Of a DNA stretch of 64,000 nt, positions 4,192 through 58,520 are shown in pieces; positions within the stretch are counted from its first letter, which is position 1, and each line of letters begins with the position of its first letter. The notes beneath the pieces were generated by a model that did no database searches, had not been told where the DNA came from, and saw only the letters and a list, made by a program, of their open reading frames with translations. Location: the NCBI RefSeq assembly GCF_036507355.1, contig NZ_AP027877.1; one strand, written 5' to 3'. Both the position numbers and the translations under genes were made by a program. Source of the DNA: Escherichia coli (GTDB taxonomy: Bacteria > Pseudomonadota > Gammaproteobacteria > Enterobacterales > Enterobacteriaceae).

Positions 4192-5565
4192 TTACCCCAA
4201 CCGCGCCCTTGCAAAAGCAATCGCCTGCGCCACCTGCTGCGGTGAGACGCCGCCTTTTGCCGCACGCTTGTCGAGGCACGATTGCAGCGACAAAATCGGA
4301 TAGACATCTTCGCCAATCACCGGGCTGAATTTCTGCAACTCGTCGAGCGGCAGTTCTTCCAGCGGTTTGCCCTGACGAATGGCTTCCACCACCGCTTCAC
4401 CAACAATATGGTGCGCCTCGCGGAAAGGTACGCCTTTCGCCACCAGGTAATCCGCCAGTTCGGTGGCGTTGGCGTAACCCTGCTGAGCCGCTTCCTGGCA
4501 ACGTGGACGTTTCACCTGGATGCCGTCCAGCACCAGCGCCGCCATATGCAGGCAGTCCAGCCAGGTATCGAGCGCGTCGAACAGACCTTCTTTGTCTTCC
4601 TGCATATCTTTGTTGTAAGCCAGCGGCAAACCTTTCAGCGTCATCATCATGCCGGTTAACGCGCCCTGCACCCGACCGCATTTACCGCGAATCAGCTCCA
4701 GCGCATCCGGGTTTTTCTTCTGCGGCATTAATGATGAACCGGAAGTCACGCGGTCAGAAAGCTCCACAAACCCCGCTTCGCCGGTGTTAAAGAAAATCAG
4801 ATCTTCAGCAAAACGCGACAGATGCACCATGCCGATAGCGGCAGCCGACAGCAGTTCCAGCACGTGGTCACGGTCAGAAACGCTGTCGAGACTGTTACGG
4901 GTCGCTGAAGCAAAGCCCAGCCAGCCAGCTAACTGTTCACGGTCGATCTCATAAGCCGTTCCCGCCAGCGCGCCACAGCCTAACGGACTGACATCCAGAC
5001 GCTTAAGCGCATCCTGCAAACGGCTTTCATCACGCGCCAGCATCTCAACATAGGCCAGGCACCAGTGCGCGAACGTCACCGGCTGGGCGCGTTGCAGGTG
5101 AGTGTAACCTGGCATGACCGCGTCCTGATTGTTTTGTGCGGTTTCCACCAGCGCCGATTGCAGCTGTCGGTTAGCCGTCAGTAACTCGCTAACGGTATCT
5201 TTGCACCACAGTTTCAGGTCAGTCGCTACCTGATCATTACGACTACGCCCGGTATGCAGCTTTTTGCCTAACTGGCCCACTTTGTCGATCAGTTTCCCTT
5301 CCACCCAGCTATGGATATCTTCGGCGTCGCTTTCAAGGATTTGTTGTGGCCTGGCGCGAACATCTTCCAGCAGCACGTTCAGCGCCTCTTCCAGTTGCGC
5401 CTGCTCTTCTGCGGTTAACACGCCGACCGTTACCAGGGCTTTGGACCAGGCCACAGAGCCAACAATATCCTGCTCCGCCAGACGGTAATCAAAGCGCAGT
5501 GAGTCGTTGAATTGTTTGAACCGTTGATCTGCTGCCTGGGTAAAACGCCCGCCCCAAAGTGCCAT
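4192..5565 (-). CDS. argH: argininosuccinate lyase
   Basis: 457-aa ORF, recalled ArgH sequence, argCBH synteny. Confidence 0.95.
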
Positions 5566-5625: not shown

Positions 5626-6402
5626 TTAAGCTAAAATCCGCGTACCCATCGGCATACCGTTAAACAGTGCCGGAAGCTGCTCCGCATGACGCCAGGAGGC
5701 GATATCTACCGGACGGCCCAACGTGCGCGCAGCATCCAGCGCCGCGTTCACTTTCACTATCATGCCGTCAGTAATAATGCCCTGCTCAATCAGTTGTTCT
5801 GCTTTCGCGGCGGTCATTTCGGCAATACGTTGCCCTTTGCCGTCGAGAATGCCACTGACGTCGGAGAGCAAAATCAGATCCGCGCCCAGCGTTGCCGCCA
5901 GCGCCGTTGCCGCCTGGTCGGCATTGACGTTCATCAGTTGCCCTTCGTCTGTTACGCCAATGGAGCTGACCACCGGCAGATAACCGTTCTCCAGCAAGGA
6001 GTTGATAAGCTTAGGCGAACCTGGCTGCGCCAGTCCAACATGACCTAACTCTTCATCAAGCTGGGTCACTTTGACGCTGTCGCCGTCACCGAGAAACAAA
6101 CCTACGGCCGCAATCTGATGTTTCTTCGCCCATGCCAGCAGGGTTTTATTTGCCGTTCCCGCCAGTGCTCCAGTGATAATGTCTATCTGATCCGCAGGCG
6201 TCACCCGCAGGCCATTTTTCTTTTTCACCGGCAGATTCAGCCCTTTCATCAGCTCATCCACCACGCAACCGCCGCCGTGGACAATCACCAGCGGACGCTG
6301 ATGTGACTCACGATAATTCACCAGTGCGCTAAACAGACGCTCCAGCGCCTCTTCACTATCCAGCAGTACGCCACCCAGTTTGATAATTAATGGATTCATC
6401 AT
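5626..6402 (-). CDS. argB: acetylglutamate kinase
   Basis: 258 aa from [11 protein letters not shown]; argCBH operon order. Confidence 0.9.
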
Positions 6403-7567: not shown

Positions 7568-8719
7568 ATGAAAAACAAATTACCGCCATTTATCGAGATT
7601 TACCGTGCTCTGATTGCCACACCTTCAATAAGCGCCACGGAAGAGGCACTCGATCAAAGCAATGCAGATTTAATCACTCTGCTGGCGGACTGGTTTAAAG
7701 ATTTAGGCTTCAATGTGGAAGTGCAGCCTGTGCCAGGAACTCGCAACAAATTTAATATGCTGGCAAGTACCGGACAGGGGGCTGGCGGCTTGTTGCTGGC
7801 GGGGCATACCGATACAGTGCCATTTGATGACGGTCGCTGGACGCGCGATCCGTTTACACTGACGGAGCATGACGGCAAGCTTTACGGCTTAGGCACCGCC
7901 GACATGAAAGGCTTTTTTGCGTTTATCCTTGATGCGCTACGCGATGTCGACGTCACGAAACTGAAAAAACCGCTCTACATTCTGGCGACTGCTGATGAAG
8001 AAACCAGTATGGCCGGAGCGCGTTATTTTGCCGAAACTACCGCCCTGCGCCCGGATTGCGCCATCATTGGCGAACCGACGTCACTACAACCGGTACGCGC
8101 ACATAAAGGTCATATCTCTAACGCCATCCGTATTCAGGGCCAGTCGGGGCACTCCAGCGATCCAGCACGCGGAGTTAACGCTATCGAACTAATGCACGAC
8201 GCCATCGGGCATATTTTGCAATTGCGCGATAACCTGAAAGAACGTTATCACTACGAAGCGTTTACCGTGCCATACCCTACGCTCAACCTCGGGCATATTC
8301 ACGGTGGCGACGCTTCTAACCGTATTTGCGCTTGCTGTGAGTTGCATATGGATATTCGTCCGCTGCCTGGCATGACACTCAATGAACTTAATGGTTTGCT
8401 CAACGATGCATTGGCTCCGGTGAGCGAACGCTGGCCGGGTCGTCTGACGGTCGACGAGCTGCATCCGCCGATCCCTGGCTATGAATGCCCACCGAATCAT
8501 CAACTGGTTGAAGTGGTTGAGAAATTGCTCGGAGCAAAGACCGAAGTGGTGAATTACTGTACCGAAGCGCCGTTTATTCAAACGTTATGCCCGACGCTGG
8601 TTCTGGGGCCGGGTTCAATCAATCAAGCCCATCAGCCTGATGAATATCTGGAGACGAGGTTTCTCAAGCCCACCCGCGAACTGATCACCCAGGTGATTCA
8701 CCATTTTTGCTGGCATTAA
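7568..8719 (+). CDS. argE: acetylornithine deacetylase
   Basis: 383 aa from [12 protein letters not shown]; M20 peptidase; divergent from argC. Confidence 0.9.
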
Positions 8720-24342: not shown

Positions 24343-24440
24343 TGATGCGCTACGCTTATCAGGCCTACGCAATCTCTGCAATATATTGAATTTGCGTGCT
24401 TTTTAGGCCAGATAAGGCGTTCACGCCGCATCCGGCACTC
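24343..24440. repeat. REP palindromic elements
   Basis: GCCTGATGCGCTACGCTTATCAGGCCTAC and AGGCCAGATAAGGCGTTCACGCCGCATCCGGC motifs. Confidence 0.8.
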
Positions 24441-28719: not shown

Positions 28720-29613
<894 letters not shown>

Positions 29614-29666
29614 TTACCTCATCAATCGCTTGTCGTTATATGTTGTGTTGTGCACATCTATCCGTT

Positions 29667-29690
29667 TAGACGTCCAGATGTAAAGATGAA
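29667..29690 (-). promoter_or_regulatory. tandem MetJ boxes (metF operator)
   Basis: AGACGTCC AGATGTAA AGATGAAG: three 8-bp repeats resembling the AGACGTCT metbox consensus, upstream of metF. Confidence 0.6.
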
Positions 29691-30026
29691 GGAAAAGCCG
29701 AAGGGCGTCAACCGAAAAATGACCAATGATGGTGAGGAAAAATCAGGGAAGATGAATTTTCTTCATCTGTATATGGGAGTAGATAGGTTCTCTCGCATTA
29801 TCGCGTCGTGAAGTAATGAATAAATGCTTAAGCCATCGGCTGGAAATTTATTTAAATAAGAGTTAATTAATATTCACGACGGTGTTAGCTGAACACTTAT
29901 TTAAATAAAACAAATAGATACCATAATTTGCATTCATTACTGCATGTTTATTATTTGAACTACTTCAAACTATTAATAATTTTTCAAAAATTATGTTGCA
30001 GAGCAATTATGTATCCCCCACGATAA

Positions 30027-30054
30027 GTAGAACGTTCTACTAGAACGTTCTACT
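30027..30054. promoter_or_regulatory. tandem palindromic operator candidates GTAGAACGTTCTAC x2
   Basis: Two adjacent copies of a 14-bp palindrome with central AACGTT (LacI-family operator style) about 55-80 bp upstream of the PTS gene; coordinates +/-1. Confidence 0.6.
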
Positions 30055-30108
30055 TATACAAAAAAGACTAATTCGCGCAGCTTTATGCGCTATTCGGGGG
30101 AAATCAGC

Positions 30109-31434
30109 ATGAGTCTGATGTCGAGTTTCGTGAAGTCACTTTCTAAATTATCGATGATTGGTCGCGCCCTAATGCTACCAATTTCGCTTCTGCCTGCCGC
30201 GGGGTTGTTACTCGCGTTCGGCGATAAATTCCATTTGCCGTTGATGATGAATGCGGGCGGCATTATTTTTGATAACTTGCCGATGCTTTTTGCTATCGGT
30301 TCCGCCGTAGGGCTGGCTTCTGAATCGGGAATTGCGGCGTTATCCGCAGCCGTTTCCGTTTTTGTCACCAATATCACCATCAGCACCGTACTTAGCATTA
30401 CGCCAGAAATGGCCGGGCAAGGCGGCAAATACGCGATGGTGGTGGGGATCCCAACACTGCAAATGGGCGTTTTTGGCGGCCTGATATGCGGGATTCTGGC
30501 GGCGTGGTGTTACAACCGTTTTCATACAATGCAATTGCCAGAATTCCTTGGTTTTTTCTCCGGAAAACGCTTTGTGGCTATCGCGACGGCTTTTCTCTCC
30601 TTCATTCTTGGCTTGTCACTGCCTTATGTCTGGCAACACATTCAGTCAGGAATCGATGCGTTATCGGTTATCGTTAATGGTAACAACCAGGCAGCATCAA
30701 CCTTTATTTTTGGTGTAACTGAACGGGCGCTCATTCCGCTTGGCCTGCACCACATCTGGTATCCATCGTTTTGGTATTCTTTTGGGGATTACACTACCCA
30801 TGCCGGGCAAATGATTCACGGCGATCAGACGATTTGGTTCAAGATGTTGGAAGAAGGGGTGAAATCATTTAGCAGCGACAGTTATCATGACGCTGGTAAA
30901 TTTATGCAAGGTGAATTCCCACTGATGCTGTTTGCCCTGCCTGCGGCGTGCCTGGCGATGTATCTGCTGCATGCACATATTGCCAAATCCTTCTCTGCGG
31001 GGCTTATTGACTATATTTCGTTTGGTATCCTGCCATCCTTTAATGGCTACGAAACCAACTTCCTGAGCGCCATTATCGTCGGCGTGCCAATGGCGGTGAT
31101 CTACTACTTCACCTTCCGCTTTGTTATTCGTCGTTTTGATGTAAAAACGCCTGGTCGCACCGAAACTACGGTTAGCGCTAATGATAAATCCGATGACGAG
31201 CTGGCAACAGAAATCATCACGCTGCTTGGCGGTCAGCAAAACGTTAAATCGGTAGGTTCCTGCATCACGCGTTTACGTCTGGAAGTCTCTGATAAAGAAG
31301 CGGTGGATCAGGATGGTCTGAATAATATTGGCGCCCGTGGCGTGGTTTTTGTCGGCGATAACGGCATTCAGGTAATTTTTGGCGCGCGAGCGCAATTTAT
31401 CGCGCAAACCATGTCGACGATGATCGGTAAATAG
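30109..31434 (+). CDS. PTS EIICB component, glucose/maltose family
   Basis: EIIC domain with FGVTERALIPLGLHHIWY motif and C-terminal EIIB with CITRLR phosphocysteine motif; start at internal ATG with GGGGGA SD (track ORF starts 30085). Confidence 0.85.
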   Translation: MSLMSSFVKSLSKLSMIGRALMLPISLLPAAGLLLAFGDKFHLPLMMNAGGIIFDNLPMLFAIGSAVGLASESGIAALSAAVSVFVTNITISTVLSITPEMAGQGGKYAMVVGIPTLQMGVFGGLICGILAAWCYNRFHTMQLPEFLGFFSGKRFVAIATAFLSFILGLSLPYVWQHIQSGIDALSVIVNGNNQAASTFIFGVTERALIPLGLHHIWYPSFWYSFGDYTTHAGQMIHGDQTIWFKMLEEGVKSFSSDSYHDAGKFMQGEFPLMLFALPAACLAMYLLHAHIAKSFSAGLIDYISFGILPSFNGYETNFLSAIIVGVPMAVIYYFTFRFVIRRFDVKTPGRTETTVSANDKSDDELATEIITLLGGQQNVKSVGSCITRLRLEVSDKEAVDQDGLNNIGARGVVFVGDNGIQVIFGARAQFIAQTMSTMIGK

Positions 31435-31515
31435 CCTTAAGATTACTCGATGTCAGAGGTTCTGGTCCCTGACCAGAACCTTCTTGCTATTTAAAGAATC
31501 AACGTTGTTCAGGGA

Positions 31516-32538
31516 GTGAGTTTGAAGAAAGTCAGCATAATTGATGTTGCTAAAAGAGCCGGAGTTTCCGTCTCTACCGTGTCGCTAGTGCTGCGCCAGA
31601 AAGGGAAAATCTCAGAGGCGACCATCGGGAAAGTTCATGCTGCTATTGACGAACTGGGCTACGTGCATAATGTTGCCGCCGCCAATTTACGTTCCCACAC
31701 TTCAAATCTTATCGGACTGATTTTACGTGATTTTAGCGATAGCTTTTCCATCAAAGTGATGGCTAGCATTGTTCAGGAACTGGAAGCCAAGGGCTATATG
31801 GTATTCCTTGGGCAACCACAGAACGAACATGAACATCTTGAACGTTGTTTACTTTCCTTCAAGCAACAAGGTGTTGCCGGAGTGATTTATCTGGCTTCCG
31901 ATGCGCATCGTGAAACCCTACCCACACTAATCCGCCAGTGTTCGCTTCCCCTTGTCGTCGCGTCACAAACGCCCATCAAAGATGAGTGCAACCTGGTGTT
32001 GCGTGACAACCAGCAGGCAGCAAGCCTTGCCACACGTTATTTAATTGAGCGCGGCCATCGTTACATTGCCTATCTCGGTGGCAGAGAAAGCGATCTTATC
32101 CGTCAGCAGCGACTGGTTGGTTTTCGCCAGACCCTGGCAAAATTTGGCATTGCCTGCCGTGACGAGTTCACGCCAGCCTGTGACGATGACACCTGGGCCG
32201 CCAGCATGGCAACGCGCCAGTTGCTGGAAAATAACAACGCCATTACCGCCCTGCTCTGCCATTCGCCCGACGCTATGATTGGCGGTATCAACGGCATACA
32301 TCAGGTGGGGCGCACCGTTGGGAAAGACGTCTTTCTGACCCAGCAGGTAGCATTAATTGGTTTTGAAGATATGTTGCATATCAACCTGACCTCTCCTGTT
32401 TTCACCTATGTATCTTCCGCCAGTGAAGAAACCGGACGCCAGGCAGCGACCCTGATGATTCGCAAATTAAAAGACCAGGAATTGCAAACCCAAAGAATTG
32501 CGCTTTCCGGGGAACTGGTGGTGCGGGAATCGGCGTAA
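31516..32538 (+). CDS. LacI-family transcriptional regulator (MalI-like)
   Basis: N-terminal HTH DVAKRAGVSVSTVSLVL and periplasmic-binding-protein-like effector domain; GTG/TTG start. Confidence 0.85.
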   Translation: MSLKKVSIIDVAKRAGVSVSTVSLVLRQKGKISEATIGKVHAAIDELGYVHNVAAANLRSHTSNLIGLILRDFSDSFSIKVMASIVQELEAKGYMVFLGQPQNEHEHLERCLLSFKQQGVAGVIYLASDAHRETLPTLIRQCSLPLVVASQTPIKDECNLVLRDNQQAASLATRYLIERGHRYIAYLGGRESDLIRQQRLVGFRQTLAKFGIACRDEFTPACDDDTWAASMATRQLLENNNAITALLCHSPDAMIGGINGIHQVGRTVGKDVFLTQQVALIGFEDMLHINLTSPVFTYVSSASEETGRQAATLMIRKLKDQELQTQRIALSGELVVRESA

Positions 32539-32611
32539 TACACATGCCGAATGAGATGTACGTCGACATCGTCATCCGGCAATAAGGTGTAAACCAACTC
32601 AATAACTACTT

Positions 32612-33124
32612 TTATTTGATATCTTTCACGCGCATACCGTTGAGCTGTTCATCCGTGATGGCGTTACCCGCTTTGAAGTAATCAACCACGGCGTGATAAA
32701 CGTAATAACCGCCCGTTGTGTTGCGCGCTTTCCCCTCGATAAATGCGGTAAAGCCATCACCGCCATCAGCAAGGAAACTCTGAGTAGCAATATGGTAAAC
32801 CGTCGCATCTTCAATCGGTTTGCCATTTAGAGTCAACGTGATTACGCGCTGACCAACCGGCTTACTGCTGTCGTACTTCATTTCCAGGCCTTTCGATACC
32901 TGTAAAACGCCATTACTTAAACTTGCGCCGTGTTCCATCAAACTGCGTAATTGTTTCCCCGAGAGATCCATCGTCACCAGTTCGTTGGGGAACGGGAAGG
33001 TACTGATGACGCCGCCCATCGTAATCGCCCCTGCGGGGATCTCATTGCTAATACCGCCAGAGTTGGTTAACGCCAATTGGGTATTTTTACCCGCCGCTAC
33101 CAATAAAACCGTTAGATGGTATGT
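32612..33124 (-). pseudogene. 3' remnant of a 5'-nucleotidase / cyclic-nucleotide phosphodiesterase (C-terminal domain only)
   Basis: Open frame covers only a C-terminal substrate-binding-like domain; in-frame stop immediately upstream, no metallophosphatase domain. Confidence 0.55.
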
Positions 33125-33279
33125 TCATTAACGGGCGGAAATAGCAACAAAGCCAAAATACTCTCTTTAGCAACCAGCAGAGAATTTATCTACTGGCTAC
33201 ATAAACAGGCAGAATTTACTCACAGCGCCCCGCTTTCCGCAGGGCGCGTTACGCAAATACTGCTTTCTCTGGCCCAGGA

Positions 33280-35712
33280 TTACAACAACTGCGCCAGCCG
33301 ATTAATATCCGACTGAATCGCCCCGGCCGTCACGTCGCGCCCTGCGCCAGGTCCGCGGATCACCAGCGGGTTGTCGCGATACCAACGGCTTTCGATGGCA
33401 AAGACGTTATCGCACGGCAGCAGTGATGCCAGCGGATGGTCTTCACGCACCGCTTCCACGCCCACACGCGCTTTGCCGTTGGCATCGAAACGCGCCACAT
33501 AGCGCAGCACCAGCCCCATTTCGCGGGCCGCTTCCAGCCGTTGCACCATCTGCTCGTTAAGTTCATCGCCATTTTCAAAGAAATGGTCGATGCTGCCGCC
33601 TTCACAATGGGCTGGCACCAGTGATTCCACACGTACCTGATCTGGTTCGATGTCGTAACCGGCTTCACGCGCCAGAATCACCAGCTTGCGCATTACGTCT
33701 TTGCCGGAGAGGTCGTCACGCGGATCAGGCTCGGTTAAGCCCTGCTGCCACGCCTGATCCACCAGCTCGGTAAACGGCACGCTACCGTCGAATTGCAGGA
33801 ACAGCCAGGAGAGCGTGCCGGAGAAGATCCCACTGATCGACAAAATAGTATCGCCGCTGTCGATCAGATCGCGCACGGTGTGGTTGATCGGCAAGCCCGC
33901 ACCGACGGTGGCGTTGTACAGCCAGTGACGCCCGGTTTTTTCGAAGGCGTCGTGGATCTGGCGATATTTATTGCTGTCGCTTGCTCCCGCCAGTTTGTTG
34001 GCACTGATGACGTGGAAACCGTGGCTGGCGAAATCAAGATACTGGTCAGCCAGCTGCTGGCTGGCGGTAACGTCCAGCACCAATAAATCATCATACGGAT
34101 GGGCGCGCATCCACAGGAACAACGACTCTTCATCCTGCTCGACCGCTTCATCGTTGAAGAAGGCTAACGCGCGGCTGGCGTCCAGCCCGTCATAACTCAA
34201 CAGGCTGCGGCGGCTGTCCACCACACCTGCCAGCACAAATTCAAATCCGGTACGCGCCGAAAGCGTGCTCTGCTCACGAGCGAACAGTTCCAGCCAGCGG
34301 GAACCGATATTGCCTTTGCCGAACAATACCAGGCCGATGCGTTTTTCTGCGCGGAAGACGGACTGATGCAGCCCCTGAATCAGGCTTTCGGTTGGTCCGG
34401 TGCGCAGTACTGCCACCAGGCTGATGCCGTCATCCGACTGCCAGGTAAACTCGACAGGCTGGCCTTTCAGTTGCTGCCAGAAGCGGTGGCAATGCAGCGG
34501 GTTACGGGTGACGCCCGCCCCGACCATCGCCACCAGCGCCAGCCCCTGACGCAGGCGCAGTTCGCCAGGTAATCCAACTTCGTCGAGGATTTTCAGCGCA
34601 CTGTCAGCCACTTCTGAGGTGTAGCAAAATTGCAGCAACTGGCGATCGTTATGTACGCCAACCGCCAACGGACGCACCTGCGCGCGTTTCAGGATTTGGT
34701 CGATCTCTTTATGCGCCAGTTTGAAATCCTGACTGGTAGGCACCTGAAACTCAATCAAACAGACATCATCGTGGCTAGTGACAATACGCGCGCCTGTACC
34801 AGAGGCCAGCACGCGTTCAATGCGCGTGGAGCCTTGATCCGGCGTGTAGCTACAGCGCAGTTGCAGGTCGATTTCGCTGCCAGAAACCGGCTGTAAAGTA
34901 CGGGCGTGAAGAACGGGAGCCGCCAGACGCGCCAGTTCGCTGGCTTCATCAAGACGCAGCAATGGCAGCAGGCAGGCATCTTTCACTTTGCGCGGGTCGG
35001 CACTGTATACCCCGGCGACGTCGCTCCAGATGGTTACGCGAGAAACACCCGCCAGCGCACCGATTTGTGTCGCGGAATAGTCGGAACCGTTACGCCCCAG
35101 CAGCACCGTTTCACCGGCGTTGTTACGGCTGATAAATCCGGTCACCACCAGACGTTTACCCGGATGTTGTACCAGTAGCTGTTGCAGCAACGGGTAAGAA
35201 AGCCCTTCATCAACCTGCGGTTGTGCGGCGCGTTCAGCACGTAAAAACTCGCGGGCATCAAGCCAGGCCGCTGGCAGCCCTTGTTGATTAAGTACCGCAG
35301 ACATCAGGCGCGCCGACCACACTTCCCCGTGGCCCACCACTTCTGCGTATACCGCGTCATTAATACCGCTGTCGAGCAGCGCCGCCAGGCGCTCAAGATC
35401 GCTGACAAAGGCGCTAATGAGGCTATCGGCTTCTTCGGCGGGTAACAGGCCGCTAATCAGATCGCACTGATAGCGACGCAGTGTTTGTTGAACCTGATGC
35501 GCAGAGAGACGATCGGTCTGGCTTAGTTTCAACCAGTTAATCAACTGGTTAGTGGTGCTACCGGCGGCGGAAACCACCATCATATCGTCGGGCTGGGAGT
35601 ACTCAGCCATAATGCCCGCGACACGCAAATAACACTTCACATCAGCCAGACTACTGCCACCAAATTTATGCAGCTGACGACCTTTCGCCCCTGCCTGCGC
35701 AATCACACTCAT
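33280..35712 (-). CDS. metL: bifunctional aspartokinase II / homoserine dehydrogenase II
   Basis: 810-aa ORF, metBL operon. Confidence 0.95.
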   Translation of the reverse strand: MSVIAQAGAKGRQLHKFGGSSLADVKCYLRVAGIMAEYSQPDDMMVVSAAGSTTNQLINWLKLSQTDRLSAHQVQQTLRRYQCDLISGLLPAEEADSLISAFVSDLERLAALLDSGINDAVYAEVVGHGEVWSARLMSAVLNQQGLPAAWLDAREFLRAERAAQPQVDEGLSYPLLQQLLVQHPGKRLVVTGFISRNNAGETVLLGRNGSDYSATQIGALAGVSRVTIWSDVAGVYSADPRKVKDACLLPLLRLDEASELARLAAPVLHARTLQPVSGSEIDLQLRCSYTPDQGSTRIERVLASGTGARIVTSHDDVCLIEFQVPTSQDFKLAHKEIDQILKRAQVRPLAVGVHNDRQLLQFCYTSEVADSALKILDEVGLPGELRLRQGLALVAMVGAGVTRNPLHCHRFWQQLKGQPVEFTWQSDDGISLVAVLRTGPTESLIQGLHQSVFRAEKRIGLVLFGKGNIGSRWLELFAREQSTLSARTGFEFVLAGVVDSRRSLLSYDGLDASRALAFFNDEAVEQDEESLFLWMRAHPYDDLLVLDVTASQQLADQYLDFASHGFHVISANKLAGASDSNKYRQIHDAFEKTGRHWLYNATVGAGLPINHTVRDLIDSGDTILSISGIFSGTLSWLFLQFDGSVPFTELVDQAWQQGLTEPDPRDDLSGKDVMRKLVILAREAGYDIEPDQVRVESLVPAHCEGGSIDHFFENGDELNEQMVQRLEAAREMGLVLRYVARFDANGKARVGVEAVREDHPLASLLPCDNVFAIESRWYRDNPLVIRGPGAGRDVTAGAIQSDINRLAQLL

Positions 35713-35714
35713 TT

Positions 35715-36875
35715 TTACCCCTTGTTTGCAGCCCGGAAGCCATTTTCCAGGTCGGCAATTAAATCTTCGCCATCTTCAATACCGGTGGAGATACGCAGCA
35801 GCGTCTCGGAGATCCCGGCGGCAGCACGCGCTTCTGGTGCCATGCCTGCATGTGTCATGGTTGCGGCGTGAGAGATTAAACTTTCCACTCCCCCTAATGA
35901 TTCCGCCAGCGTAAACAACGACAGCCCGCCCAGGAAACGACGCAGCGTCTGCTCATCGCCATCCAGTTCAAAACTCAACATTGCGCCAAAGCCTTTTTGC
36001 TGGCGCGCGGCAATTTCATGCCCCTGATTTTCCGGCAGCGACGGGTGATACAGTTTTTTCACCAACGGCTGGGTTTGCAGGTATTTCACAATCGCCTGCG
36101 CGTTGCGCTGCGCCAGCTCCATACGCGGCACCAGCGTTCGCAACCCGCGTAGCAGCAGATAGCTGTCAAACGCGCCGCCCGTCACGCCAATATTGTTTGC
36201 CCACCAGGCAAGTTCAGTGACAACGTCCGGGTCTTTAGCAATCACCACGCCAGCCACCACGTCAGAGTGACCGTTCAGATATTTCGTACATGAATGCAAC
36301 ACCAGATCGGCACCCAATGCCAGCGGATTTTGTAATGCCGGGCTTAAGAAGGTGTTATCCACCACGCTCACCGCCCCGACTTCCCTTGCCAGATGGCAGA
36401 TTTTCGCAATATCCACGACGCGTAACAATGGATTACTTGGGCTTTCTACCAGTACCAGTTTGGGTTTTTCTGCCAGCGCTGCCCGTAATGCCTGTTCATC
36501 GCCTTGATCAACAAACAACACGCGATAGCAACCGCGTTTCGCCAGGCTGTCGAACAGGCGATAGCTACCGCCGTAGCAGTCGTGCGGCGCAACCAGCAGA
36601 TCGCCAGGTTTCAAAAAGACGGTCGTTACCAGGTGAATCGCGGACATGCCGGTATTAGTAAGTACTGCACCAGCACCGCCTTCCAGTTCTGCCAGCGCAC
36701 GCTGAACCACATCGCGCGTTGGGTTGCCGCGACGCGAGTAATCATGCGCGCGCGGTTCATTAAATCCGGTAAAGTTATAGGTGCTGGAAAGATGGATGGG
36801 AGGGACAACGCAACCATACTGTTCGTCGTCATTTAACCCGCTACGCACTGCGATGGTGGCCTGTTTACGCGTCAT
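35715..36875 (-). CDS. metB: cystathionine gamma-synthase
   Basis: 386 aa from MTRKQATIAVR; PLP enzyme. Confidence 0.95.
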   Translation of the reverse strand: MTRKQATIAVRSGLNDDEQYGCVVPPIHLSSTYNFTGFNEPRAHDYSRRGNPTRDVVQRALAELEGGAGAVLTNTGMSAIHLVTTVFLKPGDLLVAPHDCYGGSYRLFDSLAKRGCYRVLFVDQGDEQALRAALAEKPKLVLVESPSNPLLRVVDIAKICHLAREVGAVSVVDNTFLSPALQNPLALGADLVLHSCTKYLNGHSDVVAGVVIAKDPDVVTELAWWANNIGVTGGAFDSYLLLRGLRTLVPRMELAQRNAQAIVKYLQTQPLVKKLYHPSLPENQGHEIAARQQKGFGAMLSFELDGDEQTLRRFLGGLSLFTLAESLGGVESLISHAATMTHAGMAPEARAAAGISETLLRISTGIEDGEDLIADLENGFRAANKG

Positions 36876-37151
36876 GTGATGAAGTTCCCTGGGCTTGGTC
36901 GGTGAAATGTCAGGCACCAGAGTAAACATTGTGTTAATGGACGTCAATACATCTGGACATCTAAACTTCTTTGCGTATAGATTGAGCAAATCCCAAATAG
37001 CCGTTAAAATTATATGCATTATCACGCCGACAGGTGCATTACACGATGTCACGGTAACGCCTGTACGGTAAACTATGCGGGTTTACGGTCAGTACCCACA
37101 TAAATTGTGCGGTCTGGTCTCAATTTATTGACGAAGAGGATTAAGTATCTC

Positions 37152-37494: not shown

Positions 37495-37600
37495 AATCGC
37501 CTGATGCGCTACGCTTATCAGGCCTACGTCATATTGCAATTTATTGAATTTGCACGAACTTGTAGGCCGGATAAGGCGTTCACGCCGCATCCGGCATAAA
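37495..37600. repeat. REP palindromic elements
   Basis: GCCTGATGCGCTACGCTTATCAGGCCTACG and GTAGGCCGGATAAGGCGTTCACGCCGCATCCGGC. Confidence 0.8.
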
Positions 37601-58404: not shown

Positions 58405-58520
58405 TATCGATGCCGGATGAGGCGCGAACGCCTTATCCGGCCTACAAAAGTTTGTAAATTCAATAAATTGCAGAATTCACGTAGGCCTGATAAGCGAAGC
58501 GCATCAGGCATTTTTGCTTC
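58405..58520. repeat. REP palindromic elements
   Basis: GATGCCGGATGAGGCGCGAACGCCTTATCCGGCCTAC and GTAGGCCTGATAAGCGAAGCGCATCAGGC. Confidence 0.8.

Follow-up and report, generated by a model that had tools for sequence, protein, structure and literature searches.

The window analysed here, a 64,000-nucleotide stretch of DNA from Escherichia coli, carries an intact metL gene (aspartate kinase II/homoserine dehydrogenase II, 810 aa in the ORF list; 33280–35712, minus strand), the stop codon of which occupies 33280–33282. Downstream of metL on the same strand, a six-frame listing and direct translation give 170 codons without a stop at 32615–33124. This frame ends at a stop codon at 32612–32614 and is directly preceded, in frame, by TAA TAA (33125–33130), which lies 155 bp from the metL stop codon. 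Its translation matches the Pfam family 5_nucleotid_C with E = 1.4e-33 (profile positions 36–156 of 158), which bears out the initial annotation, where a C-terminal substrate-binding-like domain was described as open to 33124. At the DNA level, megablast finds 92–95% identity over ~500 bp to annotated intact E. coli genes, and this identity together with the Pfam E-value means that the similarity is not due to chance. The nucleotidase homology ends at 33107, so that 164 codons of the open frame are homologous; these differ from the intact ortholog at 5–9 amino-acid positions. The last 17 nt of the frame (33108–33124) are unrelated DNA, antisense to the remnant of a neighboring gene. Based on Pfam, DNA identity and alignment to the ortholog and to UshA, we assign 32612–33107 (minus strand) as the 3′ remnant of a gene for a periplasmic 5′-nucleotidase of the UshA superfamily, comprising codons 354–517 of 517 and the stop. 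Translation and the junction alignment assign 33108–33130 on the same strand as a non-homologous 5′ extension followed by TAA TAA. The longest ORF with a start codon in this frame begins with the TTG at 33103 and has 163 codons for amino acids.

The interval between the nucleotidase remnant and metL belongs to a second gene. On the plus strand, 33108–33316 is the 3′ remnant (last ~69 codons) of a gene for a 376-aa Cys-rich "cytoplasmic protein", identified by comparing the frame translation with the protein of an intact reference locus (L001). It carries a Lys-to-stop change (TAG at 33113–33115), and its last 37 nt overlap the 3′ end of metL. The C-terminus of the Cys-rich protein is kept at the protein level between alleles that are only 77% identical. 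Because the frame matches the C-terminus of the neighbor, and because this C-terminus is conserved at the protein level, 33108–33279 is a second gene remnant and not a spacer. The initial annotation was thus correct in placing an in-frame stop some 150 bp from metL, and incorrect in calling the intervening stretch non-coding. The Cys-rich family is represented in Escherichia, Citrobacter, Klebsiella, Enterobacter, Kluyvera and other genera. Pfam finds no domain in its protein, and an IS1/IS1595 zinc-binding domain is matched only weakly, below threshold. Proteins of this family of 375–390 aa are encoded at 7759–8889 of L001 and, in two further retrieved loci, at 6001–7176 of L011 and 6001–7152 of L013. 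In E. coli, Citrobacter and Enterobacter hormaechei, the gene is always divergent from that of the 517-aa nucleotidase, with ~133 bp between them, and the Cys-rich protein may be a regulator of the nucleotidase.

Comparison with K-12 by blastn places both remnants in an accessory segment. Homology to K-12 from the metB/metL side ends at window position 33279, one base past the metL stop codon, and resumes at 29756, 146 bp upstream of metF. The segment in between (29757–33279) contains a PTS EIICB gene, a gene for a MalI-like regulator of the LacI family (blastn, Pfam, NCBIfam) and the two gene remnants; in K-12, its place is taken by ~200 bp with a REP element. We considered whether this K-12 spacer could be a relic of the nucleotidase region and rejected the idea, as the spacer has no similarity to that region and holds the REP element only. 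The boundary between core and accessory DNA relative to K-12 is the metL stop codon (33279/33280). The element nearest to it is the Cys-rich gene remnant, and the nucleotidase remnant lies ~170 bp further in. The nucleotidase remnant had been proposed to mark an island boundary at the metL 3′ end. Accessory DNA does abut metL, as this proposal has it; the scar itself, however, is internal to the accessory segment, and it is the metL stop codon that forms the boundary. The REP-type repeat of the K-12 metL-metF interval (4823–4882 of the K-12 locus, L003) has several copies in the window, at 24377–24437, 37563–37596, 51363–51396 and 58411–58472, none of them at the metL-metF site.

Of 5,426 complete E. 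coli genomes compared by megablast, about 1,843 hold DNA that matches the nucleotidase remnant, and among the matches listed, each is a gene annotated as "bifunctional metallophosphatase/5′-nucleotidase". Plasmid-classed records account for 4 of 3,021 fragment matches, including NZ_CP170376.1 (169 kb). In E. coli LHM10-1 and KY 1497, a 517-aa nucleotidase gene lies between metF (or the PTS/malI pair) and metL, and a divergent 376-aa hypothetical gene overlaps the metL 3′ end by 37 nt with its own 3′ end. E. coli ATCC 25922 has a 517-aa ortholog at the same metF-metL position, and in Citrobacter freundii the nucleotidase/Cys-rich pair is also found between metF and metL. The comparison with intact copies at the same site, which the initial annotation had suggested, can thus be made both within E. 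coli and with Citrobacter. Enterobacter hormaechei has the same divergent pair at another locus, adjoining aerobactin-type siderophore genes. With the pair present in Citrobacter freundii at metF-metL and in Enterobacter hormaechei elsewhere, the two genes form a conserved cassette. In ATCC 25922, two further nucleotidase genes, paralogs of 516 and 539 aa, and the gene of a Tsx-type nucleoside channel come after the cassette (6005–12500 of L002), so that this hot spot may house a larger block for nucleotide scavenging.

The full-length ortholog has a Metallophos domain at residues 24–252 and a 5_nucleotid_C domain at residues 334–477 (Pfam; profile positions 7–158). RefSeq examples are WP_136698611.1 and WP_000694070.1. 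Its sequence is almost the same as that of the chains in PDB entries 3IVD and 3IVE, deposited as "Nucleotidase", a structural-genomics entry for protein c4898 of strain CFT073. The intact N-terminus reads MKIKILAAGIALTLPFWACAKD, and the crystallised chain aligns from residue 19. Given the 92–95% DNA identity, the malI-like gene on one side, and the Cys-rich gene and metL on the other, 32612–33107 is an ortholog by descent of the 3IVD-type nucleotidase gene, at the same chromosomal position by metL and in the same orientation. It differs from that gene in lacking residues 1–353, that is, the signal peptide, the Metallophos domain, the linker and the start of the C-terminal domain, and in having Ser for the invariant Arg of the NSGGIR motif. 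E. coli UshA itself (b0480, the periplasmic UDP-sugar hydrolase/5′-nucleotidase) shares the superfamily and the two-domain plan of the intact gene. The remnant aligns to UshA residues ~392–543, with G407, G408, I409, F429, F498 and GGDG conserved. At ~26–28% identity, however, UshA is a paralog rather than an ortholog, and it is intact and functional whereas the window copy is truncated. Against the UshA equivalog model, which has a cutoff of 600, the intact ortholog reaches 151.8 bits. A search of the literature on c4898, 3IVD and E1V33 (the strain closest to the window, described below) and on the UshA arginines found nothing relevant in the library searched.

Base-level comparison with three references (L001, L009 and L008) locates the event that separates the window from the intact loci, and the blastn breaks agree. 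From the nucleotidase side, the window is collinear with the intact 517-aa loci up to 33107, and from the metL side collinearity resumes at 33105–33108; the only difference in this arrangement is 2,109–2,112 bp (~2.11 kb) of missing DNA. The junction, GCTACCAATAAAACCGTTAGATGGTATG, includes a 3-nt microhomology, AAA at 33105–33107, common to both breakpoints. The missing DNA corresponds to nucleotidase codons 1–353, the 133-bp divergent intergenic region and the first ~307 codons of the neighbor. The flanks of the deletion, searched for IS ends and long repeats, gave only short matches at chance level and no mobile-element signature, and Rfam at a permissive threshold gave no match in 29500–33500. 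The comparison with intact loci supports the earlier description of the feature as a deletion scar and not a functional gene. Most probably, an ancestor of the window's lineage underwent a single ~2.11-kb deletion in place, joined at the AAA microhomology by illegitimate recombination. Of the nucleotidase gene, this deletion would have removed the 5′ two-thirds and, of the neighbor, the 5′ five-sixths, together with the 133-bp promoter region between the two, and would have left the two 3′ remnants tail-to-tail.

We put a probability of about 0.93 on the reading that 32612–33107 (minus strand) is a non-functional, decaying pseudogene, the 3′ remnant of an UshA-superfamily 5′-nucleotidase gene, produced by one deletion. 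Homology, synteny, the junction, the missing parts and the restriction to one lineage are matters of direct observation; that the remnant is neither expressed nor functional, and that the deletion occurred in place through microhomology, we infer. The kind of feature is already known, a deletion pseudogene of the ordinary sort, and a single event produced two of them. Like other microhomology-deletion pseudogenes of enterobacteria, the nucleotidase remnant is cut at a point other than a domain boundary, has lost its promoter, shows microhomology at the junction and represents the state of one lineage, with independent lesions elsewhere in the same gene. Nothing notable sets it apart from them; in this case, one deletion inactivated both of two divergent genes.

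What the remnant has lost accounts for this reading. Pfam finds no Metallophos match, the corresponding DNA lying inside the 2.11-kb deletion, and in this respect the initial annotation, which had noted that the N-terminal catalytic domain is missing, is confirmed. The export signal of the intact ortholog is deleted in the window, and the native start codon and the 133-bp divergent intergenic region also lie within the missing DNA. The C-terminal domain is itself incomplete, with coverage of profile positions 36–156 of 158 against 7–158 in the intact ortholog. The C-terminal domain of UshA starts at about residue 363. When aligned with UshA and the intact ortholog, the remnant begins near UshA residue 392, and ~20 residues with which the match to the C-terminal domain model would start are absent from it. 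In the UshA structures of Knoefel and Straeter, Arg375, Arg379 and Arg410 reportedly bind the substrate phosphate. The remnant has lost the stretch that corresponds to Arg375 and Arg379, and at the position of Arg410, in the NSGGIR motif, it has the Ser codon AGC (33049–33051, minus strand) in place of the Arg codon CGC. Arg occurs in every one of the 29 homologs with a clean alignment at this column, and the change to Ser is private to the lineage of the window and E1V33. Retained are the equivalents of UshA Phe429 and Phe498, the base-stacking pair, and the GGDG motif, all in invariant alignment columns. The TTG at 33103 is a lineage-private synonymous change from CTG and not an inherited start codon, and no sigma-70-like promoter is predicted in 32400–33500. 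Lacking the signal peptide, the dimetal domain, the native start and promoter and the beginning of the C-terminal domain, and carrying the Arg-to-Ser change, the remnant cannot act as a nucleotidase.

Substitution patterns give no signal of relaxed constraint in either direction. Between the remnant and intact orthologs, dN/dS is 0.05–0.10, no higher than among the intact copies, and the private changes in the remnant, of which 4 are non-synonymous and 7 synonymous, are unremarkable; the window and E1V33 differ by one substitution over the remnant. This is as expected if the deletion is recent relative to the divergence of the alleles, since nearly all of that divergence then predates the deletion. 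The sole sign of relaxed constraint would be the Arg-to-Ser change at an invariant site, which is suggestive.

The truncated form was found in one narrow lineage only. None of 5,426 complete RefSeq E. coli genomes contains the junction, with no matching record covering 80% or more of a junction-spanning query, and a degenerate junction pattern found no occurrence in metagenome contigs. Among ~100,000 species-representative genomes, the same pattern has a single match, Escherichia sp. E1V33. Over the 3.3 kb that align, this genome and the window share 99.5% identity, and in the 2.7 kb around the junction they differ by 13 substitutions. E1V33 is the closest genome found and is a species representative in its own right, although records related to the window bear the label E. 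coli. The 163-aa and 136-aa remnant translations have no exact match in a collection of 15 billion proteins; exact look-up places the window's MetL protein on 8 contigs, and the three loci retrieved with the same MetL are at least 99.99% identical to the window and have the same scar. The window comes from a divergent Escherichia lineage at the edge of E. coli or just outside it, given that metBL (33280–37052) has at most 98.0% identity to any of 5,425 complete E. coli genomes, that the accessory genes are 88–95% identical to E. coli alleles, and that the closest genome is E1V33. On this distribution, the deletion predates the split from E1V33 and is confined to that group.

One alternative is that the remnant works on its own as a nucleoside-binding domain protein, made when transcription of metBL reads through and translation begins at TTG 33103 or ATG 33022. 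The frame is open for 163–170 codons on the same strand as metL and directly downstream of it (155 bp), no canonical terminator was found between them, the base-stacking Phe residues (UshA F429 and F498) are kept, and ATG 33022 has AGGGG eight nt upstream. This ATG is also the start of a 135-aa product predicted by the gene caller in read-archive assemblies of related strains; in the NCBI gene calls for a sister assembly, the interval is empty, with no product. Against such a protein, the domain is cut at its N-terminus and has lost the invariant Arg, and the signal peptide is absent although the parent enzyme is exported. The two candidate starts fare no better: the TTG arose as an accidental synonymous change, and ATG 33022 and the Shine-Dalgarno-like sequence before it are ordinary internal codons of the intact gene. 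The short form is confined to one lineage. Short database proteins with only the 5_nucleotid_C domain have scattered lengths (90–279 aa) and in many cases lie on short contigs, as would suit gene fragments better than a protein family; the protein search with the fragment returned short proteins only and is uninformative on full-length relatives. In another E. coli assembly (4065–5618 of L008), the same nucleotidase gene is split into products of 308 aa (Metallophos) and 205 aa (5_nucleotid_C), the latter representing a cluster of 306 sequences; this is an independent pseudogenisation. Together with the scattered lengths of the short proteins, this split fits repeated decay better than a conserved small protein. 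The initial annotation had named as refuting a complete small domain protein that genomes conserve in that form. No such protein turned up: the short form belongs to one lineage and its domain is incomplete. Read-through transcription from metL is possible, a useful product from it very unlikely, and we consider the stand-alone protein as a whole highly improbable. There is likewise only a very slight chance that a read-through fragment from ATG 33022 serves as a cytoplasmic nucleoside-binding polypeptide in a new role, or that loss of the cassette was adaptive in the E1V33-like lineage.

The origin of the short form could also be framed differently, in that the lineage may have imported an already truncated segment from a donor through homologous recombination, or an insertion may have produced the intact genomes. 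The lower identity to E. coli alleles of the accessory DNA (88–95%) than of the flanking metBL (97–98%) would suit an import. Whether the deletion took place in this chromosome or in a donor, however, the identity of the feature is unchanged. As for an insertion, both ends of the gap cut conserved coding sequences, one for an enzyme of solved structure and the other for a family conserved across genera, and so the short form is unambiguously the derived one. We think it most improbable that this account should replace the in-place deletion. That the junction might be an artefact of assembly or sequencing has no specific support and is hardly credible, since the identical junction occurs in independent records, namely an NCBI assembly, several read-archive assemblies and strain E1V33.

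The preferred reading, an in-place deletion leaving two pseudogene remnants, has little importance beyond correct annotation of the interval, which should carry two such remnants and neither a small domain protein nor a non-coding spacer. It does add to the picture of the metF-metL interval as a site of repeated gain and loss in Escherichia, with states that comprise the REP element of K-12, the cassette in about one-third of E. coli and in Citrobacter, the multi-nucleotidase/Tsx block of ATCC 25922, and the partial loss described here. Since Citrobacter, too, has the cassette between metF and metL, the cassette may be a long-standing resident of this site, K-12-type genomes having lost all of it and the window's lineage a part, rather than an inserted "island" as the initial label has it. 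For the group of strains like Escherichia sp. E1V33, the shared junction provides a handy lineage marker.

Two strong hairpins are predicted in the transcript downstream of the metL stop codon (~33222–33249 and 33166–33205; 33166–33249 overall, minus strand). RNA folding of the 160 nt that follow the stop gives -66.7 kcal/mol (z = -6.7 versus shuffles). A simple scan of 32400–33500 finds no canonical intrinsic terminator, and the hairpins are without a canonical U-tract; they may act as terminators nonetheless. They lie inside the coding remnant of the convergent gene, and in intact loci they might form a bidirectional terminator.

Farther from metL, the gene for the MalI-like LacI-family regulator occupies 31516–32538 (plus strand; ORF list, Pfam/NCBIfam), and the PTS EIICB gene occupies 30085–31434 (plus strand). 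The latter has a lesion at ~30953–30964: relative to E1V33 and LHM10-1, 174 nt have been deleted in frame between 12-nt direct repeats (TGGCGATGTATC). The ORF looks intact, with 449 aa, or with 441 aa if one takes the start in the gene calls of related assemblies. Among the 58 codons lost are those of the stretch GITEPVEF, the conserved EIIC substrate motif. The EIICB of the window is probably inactive. This deletion is younger than that of the nucleotidase gene, since it is absent from E1V33. About 30 bp upstream of the PTS gene lies a perfect 17+1+17 palindrome (30023–30057), ATAAGTAGAACGTTCTA T TAGAACGTTCTACTTAT, which is 100% conserved in E. coli LHM10-1 and is likely an operator of the adjacent MalI-like regulator.
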